Assembly: GCA_015063305.1 (NCBI GenBank)
Contig: SVUJ01000005.1
Coordinates: 34,484 to 98,483 of the forward strand
Length of the DNA: 64,000 bases
Source: Oscillospiraceae bacterium
GTDB lineage: Bacteria > Bacillota > Clostridia > Oscillospirales > CAG-272
Reading direction: 5' to 3'
Translations under genes and position numbers: made by a program
The notes under the pieces: generated by a model
The model's input: only the letters and a program-made list of their open reading frames with translations
The model's database searches: none
What the model was told of the DNA's origin: nothing
Part shown: in pieces, positions 17,357 to 59,696 of the stretch
Layout of the letters: the number at the start of each line of letters is the position of its first letter
Position numbering within the stretch: position 1 is the stretch's first letter

Positions 17357-19168
17357 TTATCCGGCAGCCTCTTCGTCATCGTCGGAAGTTTCACCGTCAG
17401 GAATTATATCCTCTATCCAATCGCCGAAGATATCCTCAAGGGCATCGCGGATAGCGTCAAAGAAATCTCCTGTTCCGAGTACCGCGTTTACAGAGTCACA
17501 ATCCTTCGCAACAAGCTTAAAGCTCTTTCCCGAGGACGTGAAGTAGATATCGTAAAGATCTGTCTCGGGATTGATGATATAAGCATACGAGCGCTTCTGC
17601 GCGGGATCGGTAAAGGTAGGAGCAACCGCTATCTCAGCGCGGTCAAATTCTGCGATCTCCTTTACAGAGCCTTCCTCGGTAAGGTAAGCCTTGGTATCTT
17701 CATCTACGTTGAAATAAAGCACGTTGGAATACTCATTAAAGGTCATTGAGGTAACGTCACCCGCAATGGTCTTTCTCTTTCCTGTGGAGGACTTGTAGAA
17801 TATAAGATCGCGGTCAAGCTCGTCCATTATGAAGTAAATGTTATCCTTCTCGGTAACAACGAAGTCGATAACGTCATCAAATATCTTTTCAGGCGTACGG
17901 GTCTTATCGTTAAGGTCGATATAACGCAGAGTATCATCCTTGTCGATATAGTAGAATATATCACCCTTGGAGTTAAGAGTTCCGTTGTATCCGCATATAC
18001 GGGTAGCTTCGTAGTTCTTGTTTATGTAGTGAGTTGCGCTTGTGCCGGGAGCTACGGGTATGGTGTTCTGAACCACAATGTTTTTAAGTGTGGAAAGACA
18101 TACTACCGAAGGATCGGCAACCGTGGGAACGCATCTTCCCGCGCCTATCTCATAAGACTCGTTCTTCTTTGCGCTATATACGTGAGAGCGTATTTTATCG
18201 ACCGAAACACCCGAGGAATAGATTATTTCATCACCCTTGACGTTGAGATATGTTATTTCGTCAAAGTTACTGCTTATCTCTATCTTTTCAGACTCTTCTT
18301 CGGGCTTGATGAGATAAAGCTTCTTGGTTACCGAGGTCTCGGTTGCTACGATAGCATAAGCGTAAATGTACTTTCCGCCCTTGGAAACAGCAACGGGAAC
18401 CATATTCTTTCCAAGACTTTCGCTTCCGCCGTCAACGTAAAGATAAAGCTTTGATGCGGTTGCGTCGCTGCTGTCGGGCTCGGTGTATACGATAGCCGAA
18501 GCATCATCCGAGATCATAAAGTTAGCTGCTGTGGTGCTGCGGGTTATTCTTCCCTCATCCTCTGCTGTGTAGAAATAAACAGCATCGTTGTCCTTACGGT
18601 AAATGATACCGGGATTAAACTTGGACATGGTGAGGATCTCTTTGACCGGGCTGGAGGATATCTGTGTAAGCTCCTTGTCCTCGAGAATATATATGATATC
18701 TCCCTCGCTGGTATGCTCCACTACGTAGGCAAACGAGTTATCGTCGGCAGGGATAAGAGAGATCTCGTTTTCAAACGGCTGATCAAGCGTCTTACCGTTC
18801 ATCGCGACGTAATAAGTACCGTCTATATCGTAGGAAAGATAGGAATTATTCTTAAGCGTGAGGTTGCTTCCGCTTGAATTTGCCATAGATACGAAAATAA
18901 CTATAAGCAAAATTGCGGCAACGAGCACGGCTGCGGCAATGGCCACGGTTTTGAGGCTGAGCTCAAAAGTTTTCTGGGGCTTCTTTTTCTTTTTTGGGGG
19001 TCTTCTCATCTCGCCCGAGCCCTGCGAGGTGTTGAATGAATTGAAATCGTCTGTCTCGCTGTTTGCGGCGCTAAATGTCACAAATTCCTTTTCGGAGCGT
19101 GAATTATGCGCTTTGGCATTGTTCGCACTTGCAAATGCAGGGCGTAAATTATTATTATAAAACATCAA
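17357..19168 (-). CDS. Hypothetical single-pass membrane protein with a large beta-rich ectodomain and an acidic C-terminal tail
   Basis: GGAGG RBS. N-terminal cytoplasmic segment with a PPKKKKKP run. One TM helix (AIAAAVLVAAILLIVIFV). About 500 aa with recurring Y/I-rich strand patterns. C-terminus is DGETSDDDEEAAG. Confidence 0.6.
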   Translation of the reverse strand: MMFYNNNLRPAFASANNAKAHNSRSEKEFVTFSAANSETDDFNSFNTSQGSGEMRRPPKKKKKPQKTFELSLKTVAIAAAVLVAAILLIVIFVSMANSSGSNLTLKNNSYLSYDIDGTYYVAMNGKTLDQPFENEISLIPADDNSFAYVVEHTSEGDIIYILEDKELTQISSSPVKEILTMSKFNPGIIYRKDNDAVYFYTAEDEGRITRSTTAANFMISDDASAIVYTEPDSSDATASKLYLYVDGGSESLGKNMVPVAVSKGGKYIYAYAIVATETSVTKKLYLIKPEEESEKIEISSNFDEITYLNVKGDEIIYSSGVSVDKIRSHVYSAKKNESYEIGAGRCVPTVADPSVVCLSTLKNIVVQNTIPVAPGTSATHYINKNYEATRICGYNGTLNSKGDIFYYIDKDDTLRYIDLNDKTRTPEKIFDDVIDFVVTEKDNIYFIMDELDRDLIFYKSSTGKRKTIAGDVTSMTFNEYSNVLYFNVDEDTKAYLTEEGSVKEIAEFDRAEIAVAPTFTDPAQKRSYAYIINPETDLYDIYFTSSGKSFKLVAKDCDSVNAVLGTGDFFDAIRDALEDIFGDWIEDIIPDGETSDDDEEAAG

Positions 19169-19419
19169 TAAACCTCCAATAGGTATACTTATAAATTTCT
19201 CTAAATAATTTTATCATAATTATATTATATATACAACAACACATTGTTAAAAAATAATGAACAAACTATTAACTGCAACTATATATTGTGTCGGACAAGC
19301 ATATATAATGCCGTATTTTGAATTTTTTGCGAAAAAGATTGTTAAAATTATGAATACAGTCATAAGGCGGAATGGGGCTAAATATAATTTTACAGAAAGG
19401 AAGCCCAGGAGGACGGAAG

Positions 19420-20373
19420 ATGGGAATAACGATAGTAAATCCTGCTGTGTCGGAGCTCTATCCGGCCATTCTCGACCGCTTTCTCCCAAGAGAGCTCACT
19501 GAGGAGATAAAGAGGGTGGCTTGCGGGTGCGGACGCATAGAAGAGATACGGCTTCGTCGAGAGAGAGTAGCCTCTCTTACCACCGAGCAAGGGAATTTGT
19601 TTTTGAGCACCGTGCTGGGCGGCGAGCAGATAAACCGAATACTCTCTGATATGTGTGACCGTTCGCTATATGCCCACAGCGGTACGATAAATAACGGATA
19701 CATAACGCTTTCGGGTGGGATACGCGTGGGAATATGCGGACGCGCGGCGATAGAAAGCGGCAAGGTGATGGGTGTATATGACGTATCGGCGCTCAATATC
19801 CGAATACCCTCGGTATTTCGCAGTCTGGGAGAACCCATCTGTCGGCTTTTGCGGGAAATGAAGGGAAGCAGGGGAGTGCTGATATACTCTCCGCCCGGAG
19901 TCGGTAAGACAACTCTTTTGCGCTCGGTAGCTTACAAAATGTCCACGGGCAGGGACGCGTGGCGCGTGGCGGTGATAGACAGCAGATGTGAGCTGATGGT
20001 AGGGCAAGGAATGGAGGGTGCGGCGCTCGACGTCCTCTCGGGATATCCAAAGGGAATAGGGATAGAGATAGCCGCGCGGACTATGAACGCCCAGCTTATG
20101 GTCTGCGACGAGATAGGAGACAGAGAGGAAGCAACCGCTATAGTCTATGCGCAGAATTGCGGAGTGCCGCTTCTCGCAAGTGCTCACGGCGACAACATTC
20201 TGGGACTTTTACGCAGAGGGTCGATAATGAAGCTGCATAACGCAAGGGTCTTCGGCGCTTACGTTGGGATAGAGCGAATGAGGTCGGGCGGCGAATACAG
20301 ATACAGTATAACGAAGGCGGAGGAGGCAGATGTACTTTTGCAAAATAGCAGGAGCGCTTATCCTGGCTCTTAG
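19420..20373 (+). CDS. spoIIIAA: Stage III sporulation protein AA (ATPase)
   Basis: AGGAGG lies 7 nt upstream of ATG 19420. Walker A SPPGVGKTTLLR, Walker B MVCDEIG. First gene of an eight-gene spoIIIA-like array. Confidence 0.85.
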   Translation: MGITIVNPAVSELYPAILDRFLPRELTEEIKRVACGCGRIEEIRLRRERVASLTTEQGNLFLSTVLGGEQINRILSDMCDRSLYAHSGTINNGYITLSGGIRVGICGRAAIESGKVMGVYDVSALNIRIPSVFRSLGEPICRLLREMKGSRGVLIYSPPGVGKTTLLRSVAYKMSTGRDAWRVAVIDSRCELMVGQGMEGAALDVLSGYPKGIGIEIAARTMNAQLMVCDEIGDREEATAIVYAQNCGVPLLASAHGDNILGLLRRGSIMKLHNARVFGAYVGIERMRSGGEYRYSITKAEEADVLLQNSRSAYPGS

Positions 20374-53727: not shown

Positions 53728-53955
53728 GGGCTACTTCATTCAGCGCAGAACAAAAACACACTAAAAAAGACATAAAAAGAACCGCCTTTACTACCTTAGT
53801 TGATAGTAAGAGCGGTTTTTAATGTAGAAATTCTTACGAATTTCAATTTTATTTTATGTGTGTTTTTTAGCCGCGTTTTGGCTCTCTGGCGTACCCTCGT
53901 ACGCCGACGAGAACCAAATCACGACTTCTGCATCTTAATGAAGCTGCCCCTTTTT
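53728..53955. other. ~225-nt highly structured intergenic element whose ends base-pair (candidate ncRNA or MITE-like insertion); it contains an internal terminator-like hairpin
   Basis: gggctacttcattcagcgcagaa (53728-) is an imperfect complement of ttctgcatcttaatgaagctgcccc (-53950), which is followed by ttttt. Nested pairs: aaaaacacac/gtgtgtttttt, ttggctctc/gagaaccaa and ggcgtac/gtacgcc. The internal hairpin aaccgcctttacta/tagtaagagcggttttt lies at 53779-53820. Confidence 0.55.
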
Positions 53956-54029
53956 GGTATAAAATATATTGACTTTTCGTATAACTTATATGAAGATTTG
54001 TGTAAGGTGGAGAATTGAGAAAAACCATA

Positions 54030-54058
54030 TTGACAAGAAGTCACAGAGGGATTATTAT
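54030..54058 (+). promoter_or_regulatory. Sigma-A promoter for the rubredoxin gene
   Basis: TTGACA, 17 nt, TATTAT. Confidence 0.6.
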
Positions 54059-54089
54059 ATTATTAGCAATTTAATCATCAGGAGGCATT

Positions 54090-54278
54090 ATGAAACACGT
54101 TTGTGCTCTTTGTGGGTACGTATACAAGTCCGAAGCAGGCGACCCCGAAAACGGAGTAGCTAAAGGAACCGATTTTGAAGATATCAGCGCAGATTGGGTC
54201 TGTCCCCTCTGCGGAGCGTCCAAGGAAGATTTTGATCTTGTTGAGGACGGCGATGTAAATGAGAACGACGAATTTTAA
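54090..54278 (+). CDS. rd: Rubredoxin with a short acidic C-terminal tail
   Basis: AGGAGG RBS. CALCGY ... [13 protein letters not shown] is the classic CxxCG...CPxCG pattern. Confidence 0.9.
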
Positions 54279-54302
54279 ATTCTTTCAAATAAGGTATAAC
54301 CT

Positions 54303-54335
54303 AAAAACGCTTACGTAATTTACGTAAGCGTTTTT
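54303..54335. terminator. Bidirectional terminator between the rubredoxin and trxB-like genes
   Basis: Stem aaaaacgcttacgta / tacgtaagcgttttt. Confidence 0.8.
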
Positions 54336-54343
54336 GTTTTATC

Positions 54344-55252
54344 TTATAAGCTGTCTATGTATCTGCAAGCGGCAAGTGCGGCAACAGCGCCGTCGGCGCT
54401 TGCTGTGGTCACCTGACGGATAGCCTTTGTTCTACAGTCCCCCGCAACGAAGATACCAGGGGTGCGAGTGAGGCAATCCTCGCCTGCGGCTATGTAGCCG
54501 TAATCGTTGAGGTCAGCTACGTTTTCAAATCCGCGGTTCTCGGGAACTTGTCCAATAGCAACGAATATACCGTCAAGCTCGATATCGCTTTCAGTGCCGT
54601 CAACGGTGTTCTTTATCCTGATTCCGCTGAGCTTGTCCTCGCCCTTCAGCTCGGTGACTACCGAGTTGAATATAAAGGTGACGTTGTCGCGGGTCTGGAG
54701 CTTTGCAACAAGTCTGCCCTCACCTGTCATCATAGCAAGATTCTGTATAACGTAGACCTTTGTGCAGTATTCACTGAGCATCACAGCTTCCTGAAGAGCG
54801 GTGTTTCCGCCGCCGATAACGGCAACGTCGCGTCCGTTATAGAACGCTCCGTCACAAACGGCACAGTAGGAAACGCCCTCGCCTGTAAGCTCTTCCTCGC
54901 GCTCTATACCGAGGTGGCGGTGCTTCGAGCCTGCCGCGATTATAACGGTCTTCCCCTCAAAATTGCCCTGGTCTGTGATAACGGTGAATTTGTCGTCTGT
55001 CTTTTCTATTTTCTCAGCAGTTGCAAGTTCAATATCAGCTCCGTGAGCGATCACCTGATCAAGCAGCTTCTCAGCAAGCTCGTTTCCGCTTATCTGCATT
55101 ATAGAGGGATAGTTCTCGACCTTCGGGGAGAAGGTTATCTGTCCGCCAAATGTCTCCTTTTCAAGAACGAGCACCTTTTTGTCGGCTCTGAGCGCGTAAA
55201 GCGCGGCAGTAAGTCCCGCAGGACCTGCGCCAATGATTATAATATCGTGCAT
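54344..55252 (-). CDS. Low-molecular-weight thioredoxin-reductase homologue lacking the NADPH-binding HRRxxxR motif (FFTR-like candidate)
   Basis: FAD motif GAGPAGLTAA, redox CAVC, second Rossmann motif GGGNTALQEA, and GDC at the C-terminus. Where E. coli TrxR has HLIHRRDGFRA, this protein reads YVIQNLAMMTG. Confidence 0.8.
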   Translation of the reverse strand: MHDIIIIGAGPAGLTAALYALRADKKVLVLEKETFGGQITFSPKVENYPSIMQISGNELAEKLLDQVIAHGADIELATAEKIEKTDDKFTVITDQGNFEGKTVIIAAGSKHRHLGIEREEELTGEGVSYCAVCDGAFYNGRDVAVIGGGNTALQEAVMLSEYCTKVYVIQNLAMMTGEGRLVAKLQTRDNVTFIFNSVVTELKGEDKLSGIRIKNTVDGTESDIELDGIFVAIGQVPENRGFENVADLNDYGYIAAGEDCLTRTPGIFVAGDCRTKAIRQVTTASADGAVAALAACRYIDSL

Positions 55253-55297
55253 ATTAAAATTCCTTCTTGTTATTGATTTTTCGATAAAACGGGGGAG

Positions 55298-55337
55298 CGG
55301 GGAAGGATAAAGGCGTTTGCGCCTTTTTCCTTCCCCG
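55298..55337 (-). terminator. Strong hairpin between nrdD and the trxB-like gene (terminator or attenuator)
   Basis: Stem cggggaaggataaaggcg / cgcctttttccttccccg with a 4-nt loop. Only a short T tract follows on the minus strand. Confidence 0.5.
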
Positions 55338-55348
55338 TATCTTTATGA

Positions 55349-57736
55349 TTATGCCTCTTCGGCAAACTTGCGGATGTTGGAAACGTTAACTATCTTTTCA
55401 ACGTTCTCTCCGTCAACGATAACGAGTGTGGGAGCCTGCTTGATACCGTAAGCATTAGCGAGATCGGGAGCTTCCTCAGCGATGATCTTGTCGTAAACGA
55501 TACCTGCATCGTCAAGGAACTTAGCCGCCATCTTACAGTTGGGGCAGGTCTTGGTAGCGAAAAGCATAAGCTTTCCGTTTGATGCCTTAGCTTCGCTCTT
55601 TTCCTCAGCCTTTACCGAAGGAGCGCAGGGGTCTGCATTCATATTGTATCCGTGCTTGTTCATAGAAGCGCTGATATCATAGAGCTTACGCGACTTGTAC
55701 TCCTGAGACTTACCGTCGTTCCAGTTCTGAACGGGTCTGTAGTATCCTGTGATACGGCTGTATACCTCGGTCTTCTCGCCGCAGTGAGGACAAGCGAACG
55801 CCTCGCCTACGATATAGCCGTGAGTCTTACAAACCGAATATGTGGGAGAAAGAGTATAATAGGGAAGCTTGTAGTTTTCAGCGATCTTGCGAACGAGGTT
55901 AGCCGCAGCCTGCCATGTGGGAAGCTTCTCGCCGAGAAAGGCGTGGAATACTGTTCCCGATGTGTAGAGGGTCTGGAGCTCGTCCTGAATGTCAAGCGCC
56001 TCAAATATATCCGAGGTGTAGCCAACGGGGAGGTGAGAGGAGTTGGTGTAGTAGGGAACGCTGTTGTCCTCGCAAGCGGTAACGATGTCGGGGAATCTCT
56101 TAAGGTCGTGCTTAGCAAGACGGTAAGAGGTAGACTCTGCGGGAGTAGCCTCGAGGTTGTAGAGGTCTCCGTACTTTTCCTGATAGTCGGAGAGACGGTT
56201 TCTCATGAAGTTAAGAACGTCCTTGGTGAACTCCTGAGTTTCCTTATGTGTAAGGTCAGCCTTGAGCCACTTAGCGTTAAGACCAACCTCATTCATACCA
56301 ACAAGACCGATGGTAGAGAAGTGGTTCTCGAATGTTCCGAGGTAACGCTTGGTGTAGGGGTAAAGACCCTCTTCAAGAAGCTTTGTTATAACAGTTCTCT
56401 TTACCTTGAGCGAACGAGCCGCAACGTCCATGATGTGACCCAAGCGCTTGTAGAAGTCAGCCTCATTTTCAGCGAGATATGCGATTCTGGGCATATTGAC
56501 TGTAACAACACCGATAGAACCTGTGCTCTCACCGCTTCCGAAGAATCCGCCCGACTTCTTGCGAAGCTCACGGAGGTCAAGGCGCAGACGGCAGCACATA
56601 CTTCTTACGTCACTGGGCTCCATATCGCTATTGATGTAGTTAGAGAAGTAGGGAGTACCGTACTTGGAGGTCATCTCGAAGAGAAGACGGTTGTTTTCGG
56701 TATCCGACCAATCGAAGTTAGATGTGATGGAGTAGGTGGGGATAGGATACTGGAAGCCTCTGCCGTTGGCATCGCCCTCGATCATTATCTCGATAAACGC
56801 CTTGTTTATCATATCCATCTCAGCCTGACAATCCTTGTACTTGAAGTCCATCTCCTTGCCGCCAACGATAGCATTCATCTCAGCGAGGTCAGCGGGGACC
56901 TTCCAGTCGAGAGTGATGTTGGAGAAGGGAGCCTGAGTACCCCAACGGGAGGGTGTGTTTACACCGAATATGAAGGACTCGATGCACTTCTTTACCTGAG
57001 AGTAGGTAAGATTGTCAACCTTAACGAAGGGAGCGAGGTAGGTGTCGAAGGACGAGAATGCCTGAGCGCCTGCCCACTCGTTCTGCATGATACCGAGGAA
57101 GTTTACCATCTGGTTACAGAGGGTAGCGAGGTGGCTTGCGGGAGCGGAAGTGATCTTTCCAACAACTCCGCCAAGACCTTCCTGAATGAGCTGCTTGAGC
57201 GACCAACCTGCGCAGTAGCCTGTGAGCATCGAGAGGTCGTGGAGGTGGATATCCGCGTTTCTGTGCGCGTTTGCGATCTCCTCGTCATAAACCTCAGAGA
57301 GCCAGTAGTTAGCGGTGATAGCGCCCGAGTTGCTGAGTATAAGACCGCCTACCGAGTAGGTAACGGTGGAGTTTTCCTTAACACGCCAGTCTATGCTCTT
57401 TACGTAGCTGTCCACGAGCTCCTTGTAGTCAAGGATAGTAGACTTCATATTACGGAGCTTTTCTCTCTGCTTACGGTAAAGGATGTAAGCCTTTGCAACG
57501 TCAGCGTATCCAGCCTGAACGAGAACTGCCTCAACGCTATCCTGAATATCCTCGACAGCGATAAGACCTTCCTTTATTTTTGATTCGAAATCAGCCGTGA
57601 CCTTAAGTCCGAGCAGATCTATAACATCGGGGTGATAATTTTTTTCCTGTGCTTCAAAAGCGAGCTTGATGGCTTCGTTGATCTTATCTATCTTAAAGTC
57701 AACTACTTTTCCATCTCTTTTAAGTACCTGATACAT
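55349..57736 (-). CDS. nrdD: Anaerobic ribonucleoside-triphosphate reductase NrdD (class III) with an N-terminal ATP-cone and a fused C-terminal thioredoxin/glutaredoxin-fold domain
   Basis: ATP-cone at the N-terminus (VLKRDGKVVDF...ILYRKQREKLR). C-terminal Zn site CPHCG followed by the glycyl-radical motif SRITGYYRP. A further ~109-aa extension contains LFATKTCPNCKMAAKFL. Confidence 0.9.
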   Translation of the reverse strand: MYQVLKRDGKVVDFKIDKINEAIKLAFEAQEKNYHPDVIDLLGLKVTADFESKIKEGLIAVEDIQDSVEAVLVQAGYADVAKAYILYRKQREKLRNMKSTILDYKELVDSYVKSIDWRVKENSTVTYSVGGLILSNSGAITANYWLSEVYDEEIANAHRNADIHLHDLSMLTGYCAGWSLKQLIQEGLGGVVGKITSAPASHLATLCNQMVNFLGIMQNEWAGAQAFSSFDTYLAPFVKVDNLTYSQVKKCIESFIFGVNTPSRWGTQAPFSNITLDWKVPADLAEMNAIVGGKEMDFKYKDCQAEMDMINKAFIEIMIEGDANGRGFQYPIPTYSITSNFDWSDTENNRLLFEMTSKYGTPYFSNYINSDMEPSDVRSMCCRLRLDLRELRKKSGGFFGSGESTGSIGVVTVNMPRIAYLAENEADFYKRLGHIMDVAARSLKVKRTVITKLLEEGLYPYTKRYLGTFENHFSTIGLVGMNEVGLNAKWLKADLTHKETQEFTKDVLNFMRNRLSDYQEKYGDLYNLEATPAESTSYRLAKHDLKRFPDIVTACEDNSVPYYTNSSHLPVGYTSDIFEALDIQDELQTLYTSGTVFHAFLGEKLPTWQAAANLVRKIAENYKLPYYTLSPTYSVCKTHGYIVGEAFACPHCGEKTEVYSRITGYYRPVQNWNDGKSQEYKSRKLYDISASMNKHGYNMNADPCAPSVKAEEKSEAKASNGKLMLFATKTCPNCKMAAKFLDDAGIVYDKIIAEEAPDLANAYGIKQAPTLVIVDGENVEKIVNVSNIRKFAEEA

Positions 57737-57784
57737 TTTATTCTCCTTTTCTTTTAAAATTTATTACACTATGTGACGTATATA

Positions 57785-57813
57785 AGTATAAAGCAAAAAA
57801 GGAGAAAAGTCAA
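57785..57813 (-). promoter_or_regulatory. Sigma-A promoter for nrdD
   Basis: On the minus strand: TTGACT (57813..57808), 17 nt, TATACT (57790..57785). Confidence 0.55.
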
Positions 57814-57822
57814 TTGTGAGTT

Positions 57823-57872
57823 ATCACAATATATTGGTGTTTTGCTTGTACAAAATCACAATATATTGTATA
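57823..57872. promoter_or_regulatory. Two tandem NrdR-box-like palindromes
   Basis: atCACAATATATTGGTGt (57823-57840) and atCACAATATATTGTAta (57855-57872) have equivalent positions 32 bp apart. They lie immediately upstream of the nrdD -35 box. Confidence 0.7.
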
Positions 57873-57898
57873 AATTGAGATTTTTGAAAATTTAAGGG

Positions 57899-58588
57899 TT
57901 ATATACCGCGAAGCTCTGTTGAGGGTATGTTTTTACGCGCAATATCAAGCAAAGAGCGCATTTCTTCTGGGGTGTAGGCGGATAATCCGTCGGATATTAT
58001 ATCCCCCGAGTCCTTAAATGACTGAAGAAAATAGCGCCCAGCGCCTACTATCCAGCGGGACATATCCTCTATATCTTGTGGTGTGTGAAATTCTTTAACC
58101 ACAGTCGTTCTGAATTCGTAGGGGATATTTCCGTTTATCAGCAAAGATATGCTTTCGGATATCTTTGCGGTATCCACGTCAGTACCGCAGATGAGGGAAT
58201 ATTTTTCTTTTGAGTTTTTTATGTCCATAGCTACATAATCAACAAGACCGCGGGCGAGAATAGAATTGAGCCTTTCGGGGAAGGAGCCGTTTGTGTCCAG
58301 CTTAACGGCAAGACCGATATCCTTGATCTTTTGCAAAAAGTCTTCAATATCTTTTTGCAGGAGCGGCTCGCCGCCGCTTACACATACGCCGTCAAGTATC
58401 GAGCTTCTCTTTTTTAAGAATGAGAAGAAATCGTCCTCGGATATAATATCCGAAAAATCGGGGGATATCACCAAAGAGGCGTTGTGACAAAACGGACAGC
58501 GGAAGTTACAGCCGCCCGTAAATACCGTACACGCTACCTTGCCCGGAAAATCAAGCAGAGTGGTTTTTTGAAGACCTTTTATTATCAT
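57899..58588 (-). CDS. nrdG: Anaerobic ribonucleotide reductase activating protein (radical SAM) NrdG
   Basis: GGCNFRCPFCHN radical-SAM cluster motif, then VSGGEPLLQ. 229 aa. Adjacent to nrdD. Confidence 0.88.
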   Translation of the reverse strand: MIIKGLQKTTLLDFPGKVACTVFTGGCNFRCPFCHNASLVISPDFSDIISEDDFFSFLKKRSSILDGVCVSGGEPLLQKDIEDFLQKIKDIGLAVKLDTNGSFPERLNSILARGLVDYVAMDIKNSKEKYSLICGTDVDTAKISESISLLINGNIPYEFRTTVVKEFHTPQDIEDMSRWIVGAGRYFLQSFKDSGDIISDGLSAYTPEEMRSLLDIARKNIPSTELRGI

Positions 58589-58688
58589 AGCAGCACAAAC
58601 CTTTCATTCTTATTACATATAAGACAAGTATATCACAAAACTGTCCGAAAAGCAATCGGCAAGAAAAAAGTTTTGTATCGGGGGAGAA

Positions 58689-59696
58689 ATGAGCATATTT
58701 GACGTTTTAGACCTTGTTTGCGGCTTGGCGCTATTTTTGTTTGGTATAAATTTTATGGGAGAAACACTCAAACGAAGCGCCGGAAACAGACTTAAAGTTT
58801 TTTTGGAAAATATCACAGCGTCACCTATAAAAGGTTTTTTCTTTGGCGTTGCGGTAACCGCGGCAATGCAGTCATCGAGCGCCACAACGGTTATGGTGGT
58901 AGGTTTTGTCAATTCGGGAGCTATGACACTCTCACAGGCGATAAGCGTTATAATGGGAGCGAACGTCGGCACTACCGTCACATCGTGGTTAACGGGACTT
59001 TCGGGGCTTGGCACGGTCGGCGAGGAAACGGTAAGCTTCTTGAGATGGCTCAAGCCATCTTCCTTCGTACCCATAGTGGCGCTTATTGGAATAATCTTAT
59101 ATATGTTTGGGAAGAGCTCGGCAAGAAAGAATATAGGTTCTATACTTCTTGGGTTTTCTATACTTATGGTAGGAATGGAGCTTATGTCGGCGGCGGTAAG
59201 TCCGCTTGCCGAGAGCGAAAGCTTCAAGGCGACCCTTTTGTGGTTTGAGGACCCAATACTCGGAGTTTTTGTTGGTGCGCTTATGACCGCAATACTTCAA
59301 AGCTCGTCAGCCGCCGTTGGTATCCTGCAATCGCTTACCGTCACGGGCGCGATAAATTTTGAAAACGCAATACCCATACTTCTGGGTCAGAATATAGGAA
59401 CTTGCATCACCACTATAATAGCATCTATAGGGGCGGGAAAAAACGCCAAAAGAGCGGCTTTCGTACATCTTTATTTTAATATAATAGGTGTGACCGTTTT
59501 TATGAGCTTATTCTACCTTATTAATAATATAGTGGGACTGCCCTTTGCGAGCGATAGTATAGACGTGTGGGGAATAGCAATAGTTCATACAGTATTCAAT
59601 ATTTTGTCGGTGCTCCTGATAGCGCCGTTTGCGCGACAGCTTGAAAAGCTTGTTTGTATAACTGTCAGGGATAACAAAAAAAGCGGTTCAATTTGA
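58689..59696 (+). CDS. Na/Pi cotransporter family protein (short form, no PhoU-like C-terminal domain)
   Basis: Duplicated motif QSSSATT...GANVGTT and QSSSAAV...GQNIGTC, characteristic of Na_Pi_cotrans repeats. Confidence 0.8.
   Translation: MSIFDVLDLVCGLALFLFGINFMGETLKRSAGNRLKVFLENITASPIKGFFFGVAVTAAMQSSSATTVMVVGFVNSGAMTLSQAISVIMGANVGTTVTSWLTGLSGLGTVGEETVSFLRWLKPSSFVPIVALIGIILYMFGKSSARKNIGSILLGFSILMVGMELMSAAVSPLAESESFKATLLWFEDPILGVFVGALMTAILQSSSAAVGILQSLTVTGAINFENAIPILLGQNIGTCITTIIASIGAGKNAKRAAFVHLYFNIIGVTVFMSLFYLINNIVGLPFASDSIDVWGIAIVHTVFNILSVLLIAPFARQLEKLVCITVRDNKKSGSI

Follow-up and report, generated by a model that had tools for sequence, protein, structure and literature searches.

In the 64,000 nucleotides of Oscillospiraceae DNA analyzed here (contig SVUJ01000005.1, positions 34,484 to 98,483, called the window in this text), three genes on the minus strand form a conserved cassette in the order nrdG, nrdD and trxB'. 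The nrdD gene encodes a class III ribonucleotide reductase (RNR) to which a thioredoxin-fold (redoxin) domain is fused. The trxB' gene encodes a homologue of the low-Mr thioredoxin reductases (TrxR) in which the residues that bind the 2'-phosphate of NADPH (nicotinamide adenine dinucleotide phosphate, reduced form) are replaced. Judged from sequence comparison, TrxB' would be a dedicated reductase of the NrdD-fused redoxin, no longer specific for NADPH and most likely working with the non-phosphorylated coenzyme, NADH; we hold the chances of this reading to be about even. The features of the cassette, with their coordinates in the window, are the following.

57899..58588, minus strand: nrdG, radical-SAM activase of NrdD (profile match, neighbourhood comparison)
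55349..57736, minus strand: nrdD, class III RNR of 795 aa, comprising an ATP-cone, the NRDD core, a glycyl-radical motif and a fused redoxin tail
56588..56599, minus strand: NrdD finger-loop MCCR, residues 380-383, aligning with SCCR of Thermotoga maritima
56150-56152, minus strand: NrdD E529, in YNLEATPAE, which aligns with T. maritima FNIEQVPAE, i.e. with TmNrdD E495
55733-55756, minus strand: NrdD glycyl-radical motif, residues 661-668
55352..55597, minus strand: NrdD C-terminal thioredoxin-fold domain, with a conserved A-P-T-L (cis-Pro type) motif (profile match, alignment)
55535-55546, minus strand: CPNC of the NrdD-fused redoxin domain
54344..55252, minus strand: trxB' (P0001), low-Mr thioredoxin reductase homologue of 302 aa, last gene of the cassette (intact open reading frame (ORF), profile matches)
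55214-55231, minus strand: GAGPAG, Rossmann motif of TrxB' binding flavin adenine dinucleotide (FAD)
54854-54865, minus strand: CAVC, redox-active disulfide of TrxB', residues 130-133, both Cys invariant in the Q-clade alignment (A2)
54797-54814, minus strand: GGGNTA, intact dinucleotide pyrophosphate-binding motif of TrxB', residues 147-152, GGG invariant in the same alignment
54725-54745, minus strand: QNLAMMT, residues 170-176 of TrxB', in place of HRRDGFR at the NADPH 2'-phosphate site (alignment with Escherichia coli TrxB)

TrxB' has the TrxR fold, with two Rossmann-type domains and the FAD-binding GxGxxG motif. The FAD motif, CAVC and GGGNTA had already been recognized in the first-pass annotation, which was made from the letters alone, and all three are present at checked coordinates. 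A profile search matched the protein to Pfam Pyr_redox_2 (PF07992, 1.6e-44) and to TIGR01292 (328.2 bits, under the curated equivalog cut-off of 343.45 bits). Because the canonical paralogue of the same genome also falls just short of that cut-off (332.2 bits), the low TIGR01292 score is not specific to TrxB', and it was dropped as evidence of divergence. An AlphaFold2 model (predicted local distance difference test, pLDDT, 88.9) matches the flavin-oxidizing conformation of ordinary TrxRs, with template-modelling (TM) scores of 0.93-0.94 to 4GCM, 7AAW and 7JYP. In alignment and model alike the last helix ends at or before the end of E. coli TrxB, so that TrxB' carries no C-terminal extension.

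The coenzyme site departs from this ordinary framework. The segment V-H-L-I-H-R-R-D-G-F-R of E. coli K-12 TrxB aligns with V-Y-V-I-Q-N-L-A-M-M-T of TrxB', placing Q170, N171, L172 and T176 on E. coli H175, R176, R177 and R181 (mature numbering). All four 2'-phosphate ligands are thus neutral, and the VxxxHRRxxxR signature of NADPH specificity in low-Mr TrxRs is absent. The earlier observation that YVIQNLAMMTG, without His or Arg, stands in place of HLIHRRDGFRA is thereby confirmed, at residues 167-177 and so one off from the approximate 168-178 given then; a compensating basic residue at this site, which was to be looked for, does not occur in the segment aligned with E. coli TrxB. The pyrophosphate motif reads GGGNTALQEA and so retains the GGGxxAxE pattern of low-Mr TrxRs.

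Related loci were collected from species-representative genomes. In the resulting set of 80 loci the reductase is 54-83% identical to TrxB', and the hosts are all gut, rumen or faecal Clostridia (Oscillospiraceae, Acutalibacteraceae or unclassified). Because Q, N, L and T are each kept in 78 of these 80 loci, the QNL...T replacement is, as far as sequences can tell, a conserved and selected feature rather than a local accident. The extended pattern V-x-[VIL]-[IV]-Q-N-L-x-x-x-T-G-E likewise occurs in 78 loci, and GGGN[ST]A, within an intact GGGNxAxxEA pyrophosphate motif, in all 80. Arg or Lys is kept at position 180 in 76 relatives and is frequent at positions 164-165. When 93 reductases with this replacement (Q-type) were compared column by column with 68 reductases keeping the arginines (HRR-type), the four 2'-phosphate positions were the only sharply separating columns; since the groups had been defined by these very positions, the informative result is that no other column separates them. 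For a tree we sampled the 150 nearest 50%-identity cluster representatives out of 1.8 billion proteins. In the tree of 125 representatives the Q-type sequences cluster together (15 of 16, SH-aLRT 94), with a small 'TLFDKFF' group inside the same group. The backbone of this tree is unresolved, with many forks below 80, and the HRR lineage that is sister to the Q and TLF sequences is left unnamed.

The decisive context, unmentioned in the first-pass annotation, is the nrdD gene upstream with its fused CPNC redoxin domain. The NrdD protein runs from an ATP-cone through the NRDD core and the glycyl-radical motif to a linker and the thioredoxin-fold domain that holds CPNC. A tailed nrdD lies directly upstream of the reductase gene and on the same strand in 79 of the 80 related loci, nrdG is present wherever the contig reaches far enough, and the gap between nrdD and trxB' measures 1-174 nt (median ~14). 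Clustering of all ORFs over the 80 loci recovered the reductase in 80, nrdD in 76 and nrdG in 56 of them, no further gene in more than 12, and no conserved ferredoxin or flavodoxin cluster. Distant members that are ~52% identical to TrxB' (P0005, P0009) take the same cassette position, as do the reductases in an even sample of nine genomes from the order's other families. The conserved unit is therefore nrdG - nrdD::redoxin - trxB', and the rubredoxin gene that adjoins it in the window is a chance neighbour. Two further distant Q-type members (P0010, P0042) are not beside nrdD, and the contig of a third (P0040) is too short to tell, so the link to nrdD holds for the inner clade only. A literature search found no paper on an nrdD-redoxin-trxB cassette. 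On one metagenome contig (L097:1350-3713) two ORFs were called, one for the NrdD core (706 aa) and one for its redoxin tail (57 aa), and in the near-identical L096 core and tail are fused (787 aa); the cause is a natural split, a frameshift or an error of assembly.

The assembly from which the window derives (G000; 1.58 Mb, 22 contigs) also contains a canonical trxB at G000:C3:12115-13014, with GGGNTA, HRRDEFR and the G-R-G contact motif, and its product is 47% identical to TrxB'. Whether an NADPH-type trxB exists elsewhere in the genome had been raised before; it does, and its presence marks trxB' as a specialized second copy. One classical thioredoxin gene is found in the genome, outside the window, at C15:113704-114000. 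A search with PF02867 found no class I or II RNR in this 94.6%-complete genome, of which NrdD appears to be the only RNR, and two PFL-like glycyl-radical enzymes are encoded at C4:60127-62199 and C21:35744-37501. Of nine sampled genomes of the order with a Q-type gene behind nrdD, eight (G014, G007, G019, G024, G015, G010, G004 and G036) have no second TrxR homologue at E <= 1e-40, and there the Q-type enzyme may be the sole thioredoxin reductase.

Reductants of class III RNRs are settled for few enzymes: formate serves in E. coli and T4, thioredoxin, TrxR and NADPH serve in Neisseria bacilliformis, and the supply is ferredoxin-linked in Methanosarcina. The NrdD of the window has the finger-loop Cys pair and a Glu at the E495 position, the two components needed for thiol-dependent turnover (PMC9669993). 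The thioredoxin-only subclades have no finger-loop Met (PMC9669993); M380 is kept here, which assigns this NrdD to the majority 'MCCR' ('dual') type, for which either formate or thiols could serve. In its Cys-Cys and Glu it is like NrdD2 of N. bacilliformis and T. maritima (Wei et al. 2014). It differs from NrdD2 and from the known redoxin-RNR fusions in that its redoxin is C-terminal, after the glycyl-radical domain, in that its finger loop keeps the Met, and in that its predicted operon also encodes a reductase of its own whose coenzyme site is altered. A fused redoxin has been shown to act as RNR reductant in Grx::NrdB of Facklamia ignava, and one grx::nrdD fusion (Lachnospiraceae TWA4) is listed, unstudied, in the same work (PMC6187632).

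The cassette occurs with three forms of the coenzyme site in its reductase. The QNL...T form is that of the window and of most relatives. An ordinary HRR reductase fills the same position in P0003 (57% identical to TrxB') and in the sister lineages G018 and G020, so at least some cassettes keep a full NADPH site. In the third form, seen in P0009, the glycine motif is lost as well (I-G-D-A-N-T-A) and T-L-F-D-K-F-F stands at the 2'-phosphate site.

L117:1605-4912; L113 (G018); L114 (G020): cassettes with a fully canonical HRRxxxR reductase, in the same gene order
L096:5001-5918: GDA/TLF reductase P0009, its start codon overlapping the stop of nrdD::redoxin at L096:2638-5001

Whatever their coenzyme site, the nrdD-linked reductases share C-A-V-C-D-G-A-F-Y. 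On either side of the CAVC, TrxB' has G-E125-G and CDG-A136-F137 at the places of the thioredoxin contacts G-R-G and CDG-F-F of E. coli TrxB; the contact signature of low-Mr TrxRs (G-R/K-G and a Phe pair after CxxCDG) is thus missing. Among the nrdD-linked enzymes the residue at the position of E. coli R130 was noted as non-basic, and elsewhere listed as E, N, S, A, K or H; G-R-G and S-F-F are retained at the contact sites of the canonical paralogue, which is not linked to nrdD. In our reading the nrdD-linked enzymes probably form a single functional group, all serving the NrdD tail, and their electron-donor site has drifted. On this comparison, we read the Q-type site as the minimal change that would be expected for a switch to NADH, and true pyridine-nucleotide independence appears more likely for the GDA/TLF members than for the enzyme of the window.

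Known reductase families were compared with TrxB' by bit scores and, for the ferredoxin/flavodoxin-linked flavin thioredoxin reductases (FFTR), DTR and the TrxRs of Thermoplasma acidophilum (TaTrxR) and T. maritima (TmTR), also by the motif statements in the respective papers. The best match in both sequence and structure is Thermosipho africanus TrxR 7JYP (239.6 bits, 41% identity, TM 0.93), which shares the GGG motif and has Q-N-L-x-x-x-T for HRRxxxR (VQNLPYLT at the site), but comes from the Thermotogae and has A-A after the Thr where the TrxB' clade has G-E; the literature search yielded no paper that mentions 7JYP, and none that gives the motif of Clostridium pasteurianum Cp34. Ordinary NADPH enzymes follow at 170-230 bits, with E. 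coli TrxB at 173 bits. TrxB' resembles these enzymes (E. coli 1TDE/1F6M, Staphylococcus aureus 4GCM and the C3 paralogue) in fold, FAD motif, CxxC, GGGNxA, length and C-terminus, and differs in having Q/N/L/T for H175/R176/R177/R181, E125 and A136 for R130 and F141, and a gene fixed behind nrdD. The pyridine-nucleotide-independent enzymes are the most distant (5J60 152, 6GNC 130.7, 6GNA 119.5, 6GND 115 and 5NII 101.9 bits).

The first-pass annotation had taken the loss of HRRxxxR as the hallmark of FFTR. TrxB' does share with FFTR/DTR (6GNA/6GNC/6GND, 5J60) and with Desulfovibrio vulgaris TRi (5NII) a TrxR fold without HRRxxxR and a place as second reductase in anaerobes that also have an NTR, a pairing of NTR and non-NTR reductases that is common in Clostridia (PMC10880999). 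The clostridial FFTRs, however, lack both GxGxxA and HRRxxxR (PMC10880999), whereas GGGNTA is intact in TrxB', and by bit scores, the measure used here, TrxB' does not group with the characterized FFTRs of C. pasteurianum and C. acetobutylicum (115-131 bits as against 239.6 for 7JYP). Neither does it possess the C-terminal tail of the cyanobacterial FFTR/DTR type (Gloeobacter, 5J60), where an aromatic tail with a Trp is required (PMC8154056). D. vulgaris TRi, which is inert with NAD(P)H, has TQ/NGK for HRRD and a degenerate GEGxxAxN (PMC5627308), where TrxB' has QNLA and GGGNTALQE. Membership of the FFTR family is therefore not borne out. Moreover, the loss of the arginines is no FFTR hallmark by itself, because Thermoplasma TrxR and AhpF have lost them too and yet use NADH.

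Thermoplasma TrxR (3CTY), which lacks HRRxxxR, was initially called pyridine-nucleotide independent and was later shown to use NADH (PMC6262447). The NADH-preferring DvTR3 of D. vulgaris keeps GGGxxAxE (PMC5627308). T. maritima TrxR prefers NADH (Yang & Ma 2010, cited after PMC5627308) and works with a glutaredoxin-like rather than a classical thioredoxin partner (PMC5627308). The shared trait of AhpF of E. coli and Salmonella, TaTrxR, TmTR (by description only) and DvTR3 is that the pyrophosphate motif is kept and the Arg cluster lost, as in TrxB'. E. coli AhpF is the textbook NADH-preferring member of the TrxR fold. In our alignment AhpF keeps GGGNSG and has L-L-E-F-A-P-E-M-K at the 2'-phosphate site, with Glu where TrxB' has Gln170. 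The combination of a kept GGG and lost arginines thus looks like the pattern of NADH users. No link to a class III RNR is described for any of these four enzymes. Of the candidate pyridine-nucleotide independence proposed for TrxB', the loss of the NADPH ligands and the specialized nature of the gene copy stand; the step from the missing HRRxxxR alone to independence does not follow.

From these comparisons we infer three things: reduction of the fused domain by TrxB', re-reduction of NrdD by that domain, and NADH as the probable donor. TrxB' would then act as the flavin disulfide reductase in a reductant chain that is complete in itself and supplies the sole RNR detected. A reduced pyridine nucleotide would deliver electrons to the FAD of TrxB', from which they would pass to Cys130/Cys133, onward to the CPNC thioredoxin-fold domain at the C-terminus of NrdD and, after each ribonucleotide reduction, to the active-site disulfide of NrdD (the finger-loop Cys-Cys, with Glu529 as proton donor). 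The coenzyme site would have been switched from NADPH, most likely to NADH, rather than converted to the ferredoxin dependence of the FFTR type. A complex of TrxB' and the last 82 aa of NrdD was predicted with family alignments for both chains and with three controls. The pair scored 0.52 and the best of the three controls 0.00, at least 90% of the contacts recur from run to run, and the partner has a pLDDT of at least 81. Of 80 solved complexes 58 attain the mark set for such predictions, as do 2 of 110 mismatched pairs; with scores of 0.60 or less, only 7 of the 80 solved complexes attain it, along with both of the passing mismatches. As TrxR-thioredoxin complexes have already been solved, the pass may also reflect likeness to them, and the prediction adds little to what synteny suggests.

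Several observations weigh against this reading. The complex prediction gave only a weak pass. The finger-loop Met is kept and the genome encodes the two PFL-like enzymes, so that formate could be the reductant of NrdD. The carboxylate typical of NADH sites (Glu in AhpF), which sits at the end of strand beta-2 and binds the hydroxyls of the adenosine ribose, is absent; with Gln170 in its place the sequence falls short of a positive specification of NADH. The amide of Gln170 could form a hydrogen bond at the ribose site, which is not diagnostic. The likeness of T. maritima TrxR to TrxB' at the coenzyme site is presumed from its kinship with 7JYP. No biochemical study of the Q-type clade was found in the literature. 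A strong hairpin separates nrdD from trxB', whose co-transcription is presumed. Finally, the TLF subclade, which has lost GGG as well and occupies the same cassette, suggests that the cassette can work without any pyridine nucleotide, and the Q-type could be a step toward that state or be there already.

This last point keeps alive, for the Q-type too, the idea of a convergent FFTR-like enzyme that uses no pyridine nucleotide and relays electrons, supplied one at a time by a 2x[4Fe-4S] ferredoxin, a flavodoxin or possibly rubredoxin, to the NrdD-fused redoxin. The synthesis of deoxyribonucleoside triphosphates (dNTP) would then be tied to the ferredoxin pool, a state with a parallel in other class III RNR lineages, since the enzyme of Methanosarcina barkeri reportedly uses a ferredoxin-dependent disulfide reductase. 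Several features would fit such an enzyme: none of the four 2'-phosphate ligands survives, and another motif is conserved where they stood; a subclade without GGG shares the cassette; Clostridia often pair an NTR with a non-NTR reductase (PMC10880999); and a rubredoxin gene is adjacent in the window. Even so we regard it as possible but doubtful, given that GGGNxAxxEA is invariant in the Q clade, that bit scores show no affinity to either FFTR family and a C-terminal tail is missing, that the 80 loci show no conserved ferredoxin, flavodoxin or rubredoxin gene around the cassette, that HRR-type enzymes fill the same cassette, and that the same inference failed for the Thermoplasma enzyme (PMC6262447). 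In its broadest version, Q-type and GDA/TLF enzymes together would make up a third, independent lineage of pyridine-nucleotide-independent flavin thioredoxin reductases, fed by ferredoxin or flavodoxin and delivering only to the NrdD-tethered redoxin. We put this forward tentatively and do not expect it to hold; if true, DNA-precursor synthesis in many gut Clostridia would be wired directly to the low-potential ferredoxin pool.

TrxB' might, conversely, still use NADPH, or NADH and NADPH alike, with the 2'-phosphate held by other residues such as Arg/Lys180 or Lys165. The remainder of the pocket is canonical, basic residues do recur at 180 and at 164-165 in the relatives, and Thermotoga TrxR reportedly uses both nucleotides with a preference for NADH. 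The replacement of all four known ligands by neutral residues makes this unlikely, as does the alignment of residue 180 with E. coli I185, a helix residue for which no NADPH contact is known; the retention of a separate canonical NADPH enzyme in the genome also argues for different specificities. Very little, in our opinion, speaks for TrxB' being a general thioredoxin reductase that lies beside nrdD by chance and reduces free thioredoxin instead of the NrdD tail. The window genome has one canonical thioredoxin gene, and the want of a second TrxR in eight of the nine sampled genomes means that the Q-type enzyme may also serve free thioredoxins there. Against a chance position stand the synteny with a fusion-bearing nrdD in 79 of 80 loci and down to ~52% identity, gaps between nrdD and trxB' as short as 1 nt, thioredoxin-contact residues altered specifically in the nrdD-linked enzymes, and a canonical TrxB kept in the window genome for general duty.

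The gene order describes a complete three-protein system of NrdG, NrdD with its tethered redoxin, and what would be a private, probably NADH-using reductase; 80 or more species-level genomes from Clostridia of gut and rumen contain it. This matters since the source of reducing equivalents for class III RNRs in strict anaerobes is settled for few enzymes. The HRR, QNL...T and GDA/TLF forms offer a natural series in which both the donor of dNTP synthesis in these anaerobes, which are abundant and uncultured, and the evolution of TrxR coenzyme specificity could be followed. In annotation, a missing HRRxxxR should not be taken to mean 'FFTR'.

The surroundings of the three genes hold further elements.

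57857-57870 and 57825-57838, minus strand: two NrdR-box-like palindromes, 32 bp apart, upstream of nrdD (palindrome search)
57813..57785, minus strand: promoter-like TTGACT-17-TATACT, upstream of nrdD and after the NrdR-like boxes
55298..55337, minus strand: strong hairpin with a 17-bp stem and no T-run after it, in the 96-nt spacer between nrdD and trxB' (RNA fold)
54302..54336, both strands: palindromic, bidirectional terminator-like element with a 16-bp stem, between trxB' and the rubredoxin gene (palindrome search)
54090..54278, plus strand: rubredoxin gene, a neighbour outside the conserved cassette (PF00301, 3.7e-20)

An NrdR gene is present at G000:C9:33436-33867 (198.9 bits, above the cut-off). 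As nrdG lies upstream of the NrdR-like boxes, nrdD and trxB' may be transcribed separately from it. The 116-nt spacer fold has an energy of -37.4 kcal/mol (z -5.06), and its hairpin may be a partial terminator or a transcript-stabilizing element that sets the ratio of nrdD to trxB'. Metatranscriptome contigs (X19, X20) match at 54000-58700, mostly at 90-95% and piled on the conserved nrdD core, with none bridging nrdD and trxB'; they thus derive from relatives and are uninformative on the co-transcription of nrdD and trxB'. No Rfam RNA family was found in 53800-58900.

The rubredoxin gene is convergent with trxB' at a gap of 65 nt and shares the terminator-like palindrome with it, as had been described. 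The connection is a local one, with rubredoxin near the reductase in only 2 of the 80 related loci (L010, L049) and no rubredoxin cluster conserved, and a conserved partnership was ruled out.

A distant Q-type homologue, P0115 (L095:4412-6389), has H-F-C-V-A-C-D and Q-D-L-K-Y-L-T and lies between a thymidine kinase and a nucleoside deoxyribosyltransferase. The run of small same-strand genes around it (Thg1, NADAR, NAPRTase) resembles a phage nucleotide-metabolism module. Elsewhere in the window a lone NrdR-box-like palindrome, not in tandem, at 19277-19290, between a 603-aa ORF (17357-19168, minus strand) and a 333-aa ATPase-like ORF (19372-20373, plus strand), is probably a chance match.

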